Shown: positions 4,186 through 6,670 of the stretch, in pieces
How the letters are laid out: each line of letters opens with the position of its first letter
How positions within the stretch are numbered: position 1 is the stretch's first letter
DNA from: Candidatus Nomurabacteria bacterium GW2011_GWD2_36_14
Lineage (GTDB): Bacteria; Patescibacteriota; Minisyncoccia; Phycocordibacterales; UBA9973
Direction of reading: 5' to 3'
Assembly: GCA_000991405.1 (NCBI GenBank)
Contig: LBRL01000001.1
Location: 145,547 to 209,546 of the forward strand
Length of the DNA: 64,000 bases
Program-made: the position numbers and the translations under genes
The notes under the pieces: model-generated
The model's input: only the letters and a program-made list of their open reading frames with translations
The model's database searches: none
Told to the model about the DNA's origin: nothing

Positions 4186-4279
4186 GGGGGAGTGCCCGTA
4201 GGGCGAGGGGGTTTGATTAATTAAAATTTTTCTCTTTGAGGCTTGACCTCGGGCTCTCTTGAGGTCAAGCCTCTTCCCG
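4186..4279. repeat. GC-rich intercistronic hairpin cluster (atpD|atpC spacer): ctccccc-tgctaa-gggggag, 22-mer ggagtgcccgtagggcgagggg, and gaggcttgacctc-gggctctctt-gaggtcaagcctc-ttcccg
   Basis: Perfect palindromes in an otherwise AT-rich spacer. The second hairpin has a covarying homolog at 5706..5748. The 22-mer recurs reverse-complemented at 12428..12449. Confidence 0.7.
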
Positions 4280-4286
4280 AAAAATT

Positions 4287-5642
4287 TTATAGTGCTCCCT
4301 TCATATAAAATTCATTCTCAGACTTATCATCGTGCTTGCCTTCTAGTATTTCCTTGAATGATCTGATTGTTTCTGCTAGTGGAACATAAGTTCCTGGTGT
4401 TCCAGTGAATTGTTCGGCAACGAAGAATGGTTGAGATAGGAACTTCTGAATCTTACGAGCACGAGCCACTAGCGACTTGTCATCATCTGAAAGTTCTTCC
4501 ATTCCCAAGATTGCAATAATGTCTTGCAAGTCCTTATAACGTTGAAGTACACGCTGAACTTCACGAGCCACTTCATAATGCTCTTTACCTACGATGTGTG
4601 GGTCGAGAATTGTAGAAGAAGAGTCTAGTGGATCCACAGCTGGGTAAATACCGATTTCTGTAAGTGAACGATTTAGCACAACAGTAGAGTCAAGGTGAGA
4701 GAATGTTGTAGCTGGAGCTGGGTCAGTAAGGTCGTCGGCTGGCACATAGACAGCTTGGACGGAAGTTACTGAACCTTTGTCTGTAGATGTAATTCTTTCT
4801 TGTAAGTTTCCCATTTCTGTAGAAAGAGTTGGCTGGTAACCTACAGCTGAAGGAATACGTCCAAGTAGAGCGGAAACCTCGGAGCCGGCTTGTGTAAAGC
4901 GGAAGATGTTGTCGATGAAGAATAGCACGTCTTTGTTCTCTTGGTCACGGAAGTGTTCGGCCATTGTAAGACCAGAGAGAGCTACACGTAAACGAGCACC
5001 AGGTGGTTCATTCATTTGTCCGAACACCATGGCAACTTTGTCGAGAACTTTCGAGTCTTTCATTTCGTGGTAGAGGTCGTTACCTTCACGCGTACGTTCA
5101 CCAACTCCGGCGAATACAGAATATCCTCCGTGGTTACTTGCGATATTGTGAATGAGCTCTTGAATCACAACAGTCTTCCCGACTCCTGCTCCTCCAAAGA
5201 GACCCACCTTTCCTCCCTTTAGAACAGGACAAATAAGGTCGATAACCTTGATACCAGTTTCTAGAATTTCCACTTTTGTAGCTTGAGAGACGAATTCTGG
5301 AGCCTTACGGTGGATAGAAGATCTCTTGTTGTCACTTGCAATAACTTTCCCATCGTCAATAGCATCTCCTAATACATTGAAGATTCTACCAAGAGTTGCA
5401 GTTCCAACTGGGACACTGATGGGTGCTCCTGTATCAGTCACTTTCATACCACGAGCAAGTCCGTCCGTCGTATCCATGGCCACAGAGCGCACTACTCCGC
5501 CTCCTAGGTGCTGTTCTGTTTCTAGAGTAACTTTGATGTCACCATTCATCACAGTTAAGGCGCTATAGATTTCAGGGATCTCTCCTTCAAATTCTACGTC
5601 GACGACTGGCCCGATTATTCTTTTTATTGTACCTGTTTTCAT
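4287..5642 (-). CDS. atpD: F1 ATP synthase beta subunit
   Basis: [19 protein letters not shown] Walker A, DELSDDD, 451 aa. Confidence 0.95.
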
Positions 5643-5705
5643 AATTGTTTTAATAATATTTATAATTTGTTAATAATATTGATAATAATTTTGTTAGGCT
5701 CCTTT

Positions 5706-5748
5706 AGGCCTTGCCTCTGGGCTCCTTTTGAGGCAAGGCCTCTTCCCG
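5706..5748. repeat. GC-rich intercistronic hairpin aggccttgcctc-tgggctcctttt-gaggcaaggcct-cttcccg (atpG|atpD spacer)
   Basis: Same architecture, loop core (gggctc..ttgagg) and 3' tail (cctcttcccg) as 4238..4279, with compensatory stem changes. Confidence 0.7.
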
Positions 5749-5749
5749 C

Positions 5750-6670
5750 CTAGCTCACTGATGCCATTCCCGCACTAATCTCTGATATCTCTTGGGTAAT
5801 ACTTGCCTGGCGAGCCTTGTTGAATACCAATGTCAGATCGTCTATCATTTCTCCTGCAGCTTCCGAGGCATTCTTCATGGCCATCATTCTACTGGACTGT
5901 TCCGATGCGCTCGACTCGAGTATCATGTGGTATATCTGCATTCGGACTAATTTCTCTGCAAGTGATTCTATAATTTCGTTCATATCCCCCTCAAAGATGT
6001 ATGGAATTGGTTGTTTGTTCGTATCTAGCATTTCCATCTTTTTATTTTCACCTAGTCTTTCAATCAATTTCTTTAACTCTAGTTGTTGAATTGGTAGGAT
6101 TTGTTTTACTCGGGGTTTTTGATTTAGGGCCGACACAAAGTCTGTATAAGCAATATAAACTTTATTGTATTTAGTTGATTTAAATTCATCTATAATCATT
6201 TTCGACATAGGTAGAACATCCGAGAGGTTACTATTGTCGGGAAGATCAAGGAATGAAGCAGTGACATTTTGTCCAGTTCTTCGCATTGCATTGTCCCCCT
6301 TCTTTCCAATTGAAATAATGTCTACGTTAGATGTGTCAATTTCCCTTAAGGAAAGAATGGACTTTTTAATTATTTGAGAATTATATGCTCCACAAAGGCC
6401 ACCATTGGAAGTAATCAGAACAAACAATGTTTTATCTACTTTGTTTTTTGTTTCTTTGTGACCGTTAAAGAATGGCTGATCGATATCTCCCATTCTTTCA
6501 GATAAGGAAGTCAAAAGTTCCCAAGAATAGTTCGCATAAAGACGAGAAGAAAGAGCCTTGGAGATAGCACGCTTCATCTTCGAAGCTGCTACGAGTTCCA
6601 TCGCTTTTGTAATCTTCTTTGTGTTCTTCACACTCTTTATTCTTTGTTTTATTTCTTTTGTACCGGCCAT
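5750..6670 (-). CDS. atpG: F1 ATP synthase gamma subunit
   Basis: 306 aa with N- and C-terminal helices (MAGTKEIKQRIKSVKNTKKITKAMELVAASKMKRA ... ARQASITQEISEI). Confidence 0.9.
   Translation of the reverse strand: MAGTKEIKQRIKSVKNTKKITKAMELVAASKMKRAISKALSSRLYANYSWELLTSLSERMGDIDQPFFNGHKETKNKVDKTLFVLITSNGGLCGAYNSQIIKKSILSLREIDTSNVDIISIGKKGDNAMRRTGQNVTASFLDLPDNSNLSDVLPMSKMIIDEFKSTKYNKVYIAYTDFVSALNQKPRVKQILPIQQLELKKLIERLGENKKMEMLDTNKQPIPYIFEGDMNEIIESLAEKLVRMQIYHMILESSASEQSSRMMAMKNASEAAGEMIDDLTLVFNKARQASITQEISEISAGMASVS

Follow-up and report, generated by a model that had tools for sequence, protein, structure and literature searches.

The window considered here, a stretch of 64,000 nucleotides of contig LBRL01000001.1 (L001) of Candidatus Nomurabacteria bacterium GW2011_GWD2_36_14, comes from the genome of a candidate phyla radiation (CPR) bacterium and has a GC content of 36.6%. 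Its AtpC sequence is identical to AtpC of Candidatus Nomurabacteria bacterium RIFOXYC2_FULL_36_8. The ATP synthase genes atpA, atpG, atpD and atpC lie on the minus strand, as do rpmE and prfA, and a first-pass annotation had drawn attention to long hairpins in the atp spacers and to a 22-mer common to the atpD-atpC and rpmE-prfA spacers. We treat these features as two elements, element A being the pair of long hairpins and element B the 22-mer with its context. The features are listed below in window coordinates, the genes being assigned by Pfam.

3670-3712, no strand: A-run, hairpin and T-run distal to atpC, a canonical operon end (hairpin and terminator scans)
3711-4157, minus strand: atpC
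4173..4212, purine strand plus, antisense to the atp mRNA: simple copy of element B, with the same architecture as 35 distinct simple metagenome copies
4222..4223, no strand: TA direct repeat on the distal side of element A copy 1, from comparison of the filled site with the empty site of the relative L313
4224..4287, minus strand: element A copy 1, 64 nt, between atpD and atpC, with the terminal inverted repeat AAATTTTTC/GAAAAATTT, a 5x5 internal loop, a GC-rich perfect stem of 13 bp and a 10-nt loop
4288..4289, no strand: TA direct repeat at copy 1, belonging to the stop codon of atpD (TAA, 4287-4289, minus strand), from the sequence
4287-5642, minus strand: atpD
5695..5696, no strand: TA direct repeat on the distal side of element A copy 2, read from the sequence
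5697..5750, minus strand: element A copy 2, 54 nt, between atpG and atpD, with the terminal inverted repeat GGC/GCC, a 6x6 internal loop, a perfect stem of 12 bp and a 12-nt loop
5751..5752, no strand: TA direct repeat at copy 2, belonging to the stop codon of atpG (TAG, 5750-5752, minus strand), with the G as the first base of the element
5750-6670, minus strand: atpG
6673-8175, minus strand: atpA
about 11438-12411, minus strand: prfA
12425..12517, purine strand minus, sense to rpmE-prfA: composite copy of element B, with the modules in the same order as in L198 and L296
12518-12745, minus strand: rpmE

Both copies of element A have inner arms and, like TA-duplicating miniature inverted-repeat transposable elements (MITEs), terminal inverted repeats. 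In copy 1 the inner arms (4238-4250 and 4261-4273) form 13 perfect pairs around the loop GGGCTCTCTT, and beyond the internal loop there is an AT-rich outer stem of 11 bp (4222-4232 with 4279-4289). In copy 2 the inner arms (5706-5717 and 5730-5741) form 12 perfect pairs around the loop TGGGCTCCTTTT, and the outer stem (5695-5699 with 5748-5752) consists of the five pairs of TAGGC/GCCTA. In each case the stop codon of the upstream gene forms the beginning of the outer stem. The two copies are 73% identical over 71 nt, and the GGGCTC of the loop and the tail CCTCTTCCCG are exactly common to both, while three stem positions differ on both sides and still form Watson-Crick pairs, one terminal pair being lost. 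Hence, the perfect hairpins after the atpD and atpG stop codons, the conserved loop and tail and the compensatory changes are all as the first-pass annotation had described them. Its description of the spacers as the only GC-rich islands of the operon applies to a part of them: at 30-nt resolution 4173-4216 alone stands out (at least 70% GC), but the long hairpins, with approximately 60% GC, are no richer than the nearby coding sequence at 100-nt resolution. The spacers folded much better than shuffled sequences, with z = -8.0, -4.9 and -5.4. A pseudoknot between the GGG of the loop and the CCC of the tail was considered and rejected, as connecting loops of 0-2 nt cannot span a stem of 12-13 bp.

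Relatives were reached via AtpD loci, with one genome per species, and via AtpC homologues, which gave the closer ones. In L313 the spacer between atpD and atpC comprises 27 nt and is a clean empty site (...GCATTA TAA TTAATAATT...ATG); in its sister L314 (about 90% nucleotide identity) a 66-nt block, that is, the 64-nt element A and one TA, is inserted where L313 is empty. The empty site reads CATTA-TA-ATTAAT and the filled sites read CATTA-TA-AAATTTTTC...GAAAAATTT-TA-ATTA, which fits a TA duplication exactly. What is duplicated is the TA of the stop codon, which is then completed to TAA or TAG by the first base of the element. The boundaries of copy 2 are GAGC-TA-GGC...GCC-TA-ACAAAA, and after atpG the relatives with another insert read TAG-G (L313, L319), the empty ones reading TAA. 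The L314 copy is 100% identical to copy 1 of the window over 73 nt, against a nucleotide identity of the flanking genes of 81% for atpC and 87% for atpD.

Elsewhere element A is mostly missing. The spacer between atpD and atpC in L320 is, as in L313, 27 nt long and free of inserts; the spacers between atpG and atpD in L002-L007, L316 and L321 measure 32-45 nt and have no such hairpin. The closest AtpD-based relatives (L002-L007) carry unrelated palindromes between atpD and atpC, and L315, L316 and L319-L323 have neither element A nor element B, with other AT-rich palindromic families in the atpA-atpG, atpG-atpD and atpD-atpC spacers or, in L320, nothing. In total, element A was missing from 18 of the 20 related atpD-atpC spacers and from all related atpG-atpD spacers read. 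The alignment with close relatives that the annotation had suggested as a check was thus unfavourable to conservation, most relatives having unrelated palindromes or nothing in place of element A. The only other ortholog of copy 1, that of L314, is identical, hence there is no covariation of the kind expected of a conserved cis-regulatory RNA.

No further copies of element A were found in about 2 Mb of fetched related loci, a strict exact pattern had 0 matches in the viral contigs of IMG/VR, and BLAST against phage and plasmid collections gave no match. The 82 matches of a loose pattern in IMG/VR were discarded as chance occurrences, none being a hairpin. Two candidates within the window were also rejected. 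The site at 42530-42614 has the 10-mer AGGCCTTGCC in common with copy 2, which is probably fortuitous. It is a bidirectional terminator of canonical form, situated where genes converge, with a perfect 18-bp hairpin that has an AAG loop and is bordered by an A-run and a T-run. The hairpin GGCAAGGCC at 22178 is within coding sequence.

The same spacers of several Nomurabacteria relatives carry a different, AT-rich palindromic family (core TTCTAGTNACTAGAA / TTAGGTTCTAGTA, partly in tandem 'GAAACTA' units), found between atpA and atpG, atpG and atpD, and atpD and atpC (L313 1750-1828; L315 236-286; L316 3204-3248; L319 1384-1542, 2500-2575 and 3929-4000; L321 1537-1584) and likewise situated directly after stop codons (TAG-GTTCTAG). 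A 101-nt atpD-atpC spacer built of inverted AAGTTATAAAG / CTTTATAACTT repeats (L321 3900-4000, L322 3546-3646, L323 3305-3405) is identical in the three contigs, which come from different samples, and is a lineage-specific palindromic insert. In L005, at about 3960-4040, a GC-rich block (CCCTCCTTCGCTAAAGCTTTGGACGGGCAAGG...) is apparently inserted just after the original atpC start (ATGTCAAAACAATTAA-...), and a new downstream ATG restores the N-terminus (ATGAACACAAAACAACTAAAACTT). The 159-nt atpA-atpG spacer of L319 (1384-1542) contains an apparent displaced atpG start (ATGGCTGGAACAAAAGAA) followed by a GC-richer insert, as if the 5' end of atpG had received an insertion and the gene now started further downstream. 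In L316 an open reading frame of 73 codons (660-881), hydrophobic and membrane-like, lies between atpA and atpG, which are adjacent in the window (6670/6673).

The simple copy of element B consists of a pyrimidine arm CTCCCCC (4173-4179), a loop (4180-4185), a purine arm GGGGGAG (4186-4192), T (4193), a mini-hairpin GCCC-GTA-GGGC (4194-4204), a mirror purine tract GAGGGGG (4205-4211) and T (4212). This copy is not present in L314, although L314 carries element A at the same site. The reported recurrence of the 22-mer (4189-4210) on the minus strand at 12428-12449 with 2 mismatches was reproduced, 0 such occurrences being expected by chance, and the homology proved to be wider, as it extends over about 65 nt (74% identity) and takes in the pyrimidine/purine hairpin next to the 22-mer. 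The second copy is composite and reads, on the minus strand, CCACCACCCCC, AA, a hairpin CCCCCTCC/GGAGGGGG, a spacer, a hairpin CCTCTCCTCC/GGAGGAGGAGG, AGU, GCCC-GAA-GGGC and GAGGTGGTG; the last tract pairs with the first one and closes a four-helix fold. It begins directly after the rpmE stop codon and ends 3 nt ahead of TGCTATAAT-N6-ATG of prfA. Relative to transcription the two copies have opposite orientations.

Unlike the family of element A, that of element B is very large. A metagenome scan with GGAGTGCCCGNAGGGCGAGG gave at least 135 matches in at least 120 stretches, and all but about six GC-rich coding chance matches share the extended design. On the purine strand this design comprises a T-run, a pyrimidine arm (P1), a loop, a purine arm (R1), T, the mini-hairpin, a purine tract (R2) and T. 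The mini-hairpin takes the form GCCC-GNA-GGGC, or GTCC/GGAC, GTCGC/GCGAC, GGCAC/GTGCC and others. The core is a nearly invariant 28 nt, found in at least two phyla and in phage-like contigs. As judged by linked proteins, the host contigs belong to Barnesiella intestinihominis (the many human-gut matches), a Bacteroidales metagenome-assembled genome, Candidatus Nomurabacteria and Paceibacterota, and the B-bearing L207 is a cellular chromosome. The core pattern GTGCCCGNAGGGCGAGG also matched low-GC phage-like contigs of IMG/VR with the same flanking architecture; in one of these, the 12-kb L084, hairpins of C-tracts and G-tracts are situated at nearly every junction of co-oriented genes (3928-3963, 4897-4955, 5776-5855, 6545-6587 and 8178-8208), with the pyrimidine version on the coding strand, two of them being full B cores and several reading CCCCCCTGCCCCCC-TAAA-GGGGGG and then TAATTTGAGGCTAAAGA.

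Simple copies are often situated between convergent genes. The composite copies fall into two orders: hairpin, mini-hairpin, R2...P2, CCCCAA and hairpin (L261, L300, L301, L312, L204), and P2, CCCAA, hairpin, spacer, hairpin, mini-hairpin and R2 (the window, L198, L296). These are circular permutations of each other, and R2 (GGTGGTG) pairs with P2 (CACCACC) in both. In Barnesiella intestinihominis (L245, L288, L293, L201, L210, L233) we observed intergenic arrays and inverted pairs of two classes, GGGGGAG-T-GCCCGNAGGGC-GAGGGGG and GGGGAGG-T-GTCCGAAGGAC-GGAGGGG; a locus of 10-14 kb has up to six copies or more. In this species the loop is replaced by an inserted GNA/GNRA-capped hairpin, rich in G.U-type pairs, which precedes each copy.

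Known families did not account for element B. At the gathering threshold Rfam 15 recognized only two tRNAs in the window, in the E-value mode the spacers gave only spurious miRNA-like hairpin matches, and in thirteen B-bearing loci the matches were riboswitches elsewhere, none being to B. The core sequences were not found by a full-text literature search, nor was anything specific found in the literature on repetitive extragenic palindromic (REP) sequences and REP-associated tyrosine transposases (RAYTs) in Bacteroides or on palindromic elements in CPR. When the Barnesiella form was used as a BLAST query, six unannotated faecal phage records and no plasmid were returned, and an exhaustive protein search with the translated composite copy gave no match at E <= 0.001. 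Three further candidates were set aside: the Bacteroides multicopy small RNAs FopS/GibS, which are 65-70 nt long, have their own promoters and a 5' seed aimed at translation-initiation regions, and were judged unrelated by this description, not by sequence comparison; twister or another self-cleaving ribozyme, brought to mind by the circular permutation, for which Rfam gave no signal; and a kink-turn around the mini-hairpin, where the GA positions do not fit.

The two purine tracts of element B are related in an unusual way. P1 covaries with R1 so that Watson-Crick pairing is kept, and R2 so that it mirrors R1: GGGGGAG/GAGGGGG, GGGGAGG/GGAGGGG, GGGGAGA/AGAGGGG, GGAGAGGGG/GGGGTGAGG, AGGAGAGGG/GGGTGAGGA, GGAGGAGGAG/GAGGTGGTG and GAAGGGAG/GAGGGATG. 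The tract pairs were taken by a descriptor scan, as an ungapped alignment misplaces the first arm. Over 60 distinct pairs, the mirror position of a G is again G in 89% of cases and that of an A is A or T in 67%, compared with 11-24% in shifted registers; 346 of the 413 positions are mirror-consistent against 274 +/- 8 in shuffles, none of the 2000 shuffles having reached the observed value, although this count overstates independence, as the pairs are partly related by descent. In the first hairpin G.T oppositions outnumber A.C ones (167 vs 21), and the inserted Barnesiella hairpins pair on the purine strand only. Thus, folding is likely to take place on the purine strand.

In the mirror tract the bases obey the reverse-Hoogsteen code to be expected of a fold-back purine-motif triplex (G on G-C, A or T on A-T). 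In such a structure P1 would pair with R1, the GNA mini-hairpin would serve as the turn, and R2 would be the third strand. On these grounds one could propose that element B represents an as yet undescribed cross-phylum class of selfish nucleic acids, the core of which would fold, in one strand only, into an intramolecular triple helix of the purine motif, and which a dedicated enzyme would move between genes and into reading frames; we regard this proposal as tentative and rather doubtful in its entirety. It may be, more simply, that the mirror tracts have other pairing partners, such as the separate pyrimidine tract with which they pair in the composite form. The folded molecule may be single-stranded DNA or RNA: the many G.U-type pairs in Barnesiella favour RNA, whereas GNA triloop mini-hairpins and purine-motif triplexes are favoured in DNA.

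Element B is also found inside genes. In CPR contigs the reading frame passes through it without a stop codon, and in every case the coding strand has the pyrimidine version: in a KsgA-like gene of L300, in KsgA of L258 (a simple copy, ...NPLALRALPLSRG...), in an FtsK-like gene of L198, which has two in-frame insertions (one of them ...PLLDEEGDGGGNSKKSPPRLSGTPPPQGGDEEE...), and in a conserved protein of unknown function in L301 and L312. In the alignment of the two KsgA orthologs each insertion corresponds to a gap in the other one, that is, presence and absence are reciprocal.

We consider it probable that the features of the atp and rpmE-prfA spacers go back to the insertion of small, selfish palindromic elements of DNA, which belong to two unrelated families, and are not a conserved device for atp control. 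This reading draws on the insertion polymorphism, the TA flanks, the identical copy in a diverged genome beside an empty sister, the distribution and architecture of element B and its in-frame insertions in coding sequences. Element A would behave like a MITE, the whole unit of 54-64 nt being one imperfect palindrome, which would have landed on the stop-codon TA of atpD and of atpG and duplicated it; by analogy with TA-duplicating MITEs, it could be moved in trans by a TA-targeting DDE transposase of the IS630/Tc1-mariner kind. Element B would fold on the purine strand, possibly into a fold-back triple helix, and would be moved by some enzyme; it tolerates many landing sites, including in-frame positions in essential genes. 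Being co-transcribed, both elements would put strong hairpins into the atp and rpmE-prfA transcripts, where these might incidentally serve as targets of RNases or as barriers to 3'-exonucleases. The insertions are best read as tolerated in the spacers, any effect on expression being secondary.

The suggestion of the first-pass annotation that the hairpins might be a REP-like dispersed repeat family is borne out in one respect, as the 22-mer belongs to a very large dispersed family. This family, however, spans phyla and is not private to the genome, and the long hairpins are a separate, low-copy element, resembling a miniature transposon more than a classical REP by insertion polymorphism and TA flanks.

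It is instructive to compare both elements with known systems. TA-duplicating MITEs derived from IS630/Tc1-mariner, such as the Correia elements of Neisseria, have, like element A, two inverted repeats with a short spacer, TA...TA flanks and filled and empty alleles, and Correia elements are likewise intercistronic and transcribed together with their neighbours as a long hairpin, which in mRNA is a substrate of RNase III. The likeness is one of design, and element A is much smaller (54-64 nt against about 100-155 nt). REP sequences, bacterial interspersed mosaic elements (BIMEs) and REP doublets forming hairpins (REPINs), which are associated with RAYTs in Enterobacteria and Pseudomonas, resemble element B as short GC-rich imperfect palindromes in either orientation, extragenic, often at the 3' ends of genes or between convergent genes, and in mosaic arrangements, inverted pairs and arrays, the latter seen for element B in Barnesiella; element A has in common with them only the palindrome and the extragenic position. 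REP elements can stabilise the upstream mRNA. On the other hand, neither A nor B has the 5' GTAG foot of REP, and REP families are specific to a species or genus, whereas the B core is nearly identical across phyla and also inserts into coding sequence. In the latter respect element B behaves like the Rickettsia palindromic elements (RPEs), palindromic repeats that occur between genes and in frame inside conserved genes (KsgA and FtsK in the case of B), adding a short stop-free peptide. The likeness is again in behaviour, and we do not claim membership: the hosts are CPR, Bacteroidales and phage-like contigs and not Rickettsia, element B is shorter (40-95 nt), and its architecture of poly-purine/pyrimidine arms, GNA mini-hairpin and mirror tract is unrelated. 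Finally, the GC clusters of yeast mitochondria are short GC-rich palindromic insertions in AT-rich intergenic DNA, polymorphic between strains; belonging to an organelle genome and having different sequences, they serve as a lead only.

Several observations weigh against the insertion of selfish elements. Each element has only two copies in the 81 kb of source-genome sequence on which copy counts are based (the window, L317 and L318), which does not show a high copy number in this genome and, in the case of A, differs from the many dispersed copies of typical MITEs. No transposase is present among the L317 and L318 genes with precomputed Pfam hits, a set that leaves most window open reading frames unscanned. 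The TA...TA flanks amount to n = 2 in the window and 1 filled relative, and TA is common in this genome, so that at 37% GC such flanks are not rare by chance. For the identity of element A in the window and L314, very strong selection or gene conversion over a short patch could be another explanation, and the presence of some palindrome after atpD in most relatives could mean that a hairpin is favoured there by selection and not merely tolerated. Also, all four copies (4173-4289, 5695-5752 and 12425-12517) are situated within 8.4 kb of the 81 kb, in two highly expressed operons, which could be explained by a preference for transcribed DNA, by local hopping or by chance.

The alternative that survives best is that the hairpins, possibly as co-opted insertions, are selected intercistronic RNA structures, acting as exonuclease barriers or sites for a double-strand RNase and giving the atpG, atpD and atpC messages different lifetimes. 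Consistent with this are their start 8-13 nt past the stop codons and the inclusion of the stop codon in the outer stems, the perfect stems with three two-sided changes and z = -5 to -8, the perfect conservation of element A between genomes diverged by 13-19%, and the presence of some palindrome between atpD and atpC in roughly 15 of the 20 relatives (L002, L004, L005, L006, L007, L009, L314, L315, L316, L319, L321-L323); besides, a co-transcribed hairpin of 24-29 bp could be an RNase target or an exonuclease block. But L313 and L320 have a 27-nt spacer without a hairpin, L003 and L008 have none of note, the palindromes of different relatives are unrelated in sequence, size and GC content, and among the relatives examined the hairpin between atpG and atpD is confined to this genome. 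Nor is perfect identity that extends to the loop and the AT-rich outer stem predicted by structural selection. The proposal of the first-pass annotation that the hairpins set subunit stoichiometry is not supported: element A is absent from most orthologous spacers, with a clean empty site in L313 and a short insert-free spacer in L320, and other lineages carry unrelated palindromes at the same places. Moreover, a barrier after atpG, ahead of the gene needed at three copies, would favour the wrong subunit, that is, gamma (one copy) over beta (three copies). We therefore regard selection for the hairpins as unlikely, though it deserves to be kept in view.

Much less probable is the role of terminators or attenuators, factor-dependent or lacking a U-tract, which would keep transcription units apart in a genome with an individual promoter of the leaderless type for most genes. 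Indeed, TATAAT, often as TGnTATAAT, ends 6-10 nt ahead of the ATG in many genes, including prfA (12409-12425), which suggests that leaderless or near-leaderless mRNAs are widespread even for operon-like genes. The composite B copy lies exactly between the rpmE stop codon and the prfA -10 box, one of its inner hairpins (12504-12482, minus strand) scored as terminator-like, if borderline, and simple B copies are often found between convergent genes. However, the terminator scan found no T-run after either element A hairpin on either strand, such as an intrinsic terminator would have, and in element B the runs are placed the wrong way round for both directions, with the T-run ahead of the hairpin on the purine strand and an A-run behind it on the other one. 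Element B is also present inside coding sequences, where termination would be lethal, and the real terminators of this genome (3670-3712, 42530-42614) look canonical.

That the purine arms are Shine-Dalgarno (SD) sites masked by anti-SD-like arms and tune the initiation of atpC and prfA, in line with the SD/anti-SD-like hairpins of the first-pass annotation, is scarcely credible: GGGGGAG, paired with CTCCCCC, does lie ahead of the atpC ATG, but its 15-nt distance is too long for an SD site, an SD-like motif (GGAG or GAGG) occurs within 30 nt upstream of only 2 of the 45 called genes of L317 and L318, atpC being one of them owing to the element B insertion alone, and this scarcity, the distance and the TATAAT boxes near the ATGs together indicate that the arms are not ribosome-binding sites, while the prfA copy has the opposite orientation, relatives lack the element ahead of atpC, and the same core is present in intergenic regions of Barnesiella (Bacteroidales) and inside coding genes. 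Bacteroidota rarely use SD sequences.

With the insertion of two selfish families as the preferred reading, element A alone is an ordinary, if very small, MITE-like insertion, and element B is the more interesting result: to all appearance, it is an RPE/REP-like family not described before, shared by CPR, Bacteroidales and phage-like contigs, the mirror-tract core of which is unusual. The lesson for annotation is that a strong hairpin with covarying stems may occur in an operon without being a regulator; what decided the matter here was whether near relatives have it or lack it. Even CPR genomes, streamlined to about 1 Mb, harbour miniature mobile elements that look active, for which the TA of stop codons and the intercistronic spacers of core operons are landing pads. 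As element B occurs in at least two phyla and in phage-like contigs, one may ask which agent moves it and by which route it crosses phyla. By adding peptide segments to essential CPR proteins (KsgA, FtsK) it is one source of the insertions in CPR proteins that have lacked an explanation, and it could mislead gene calling and alignment; its mirror-tract architecture makes it a concrete candidate for a natural fold-back triplex.

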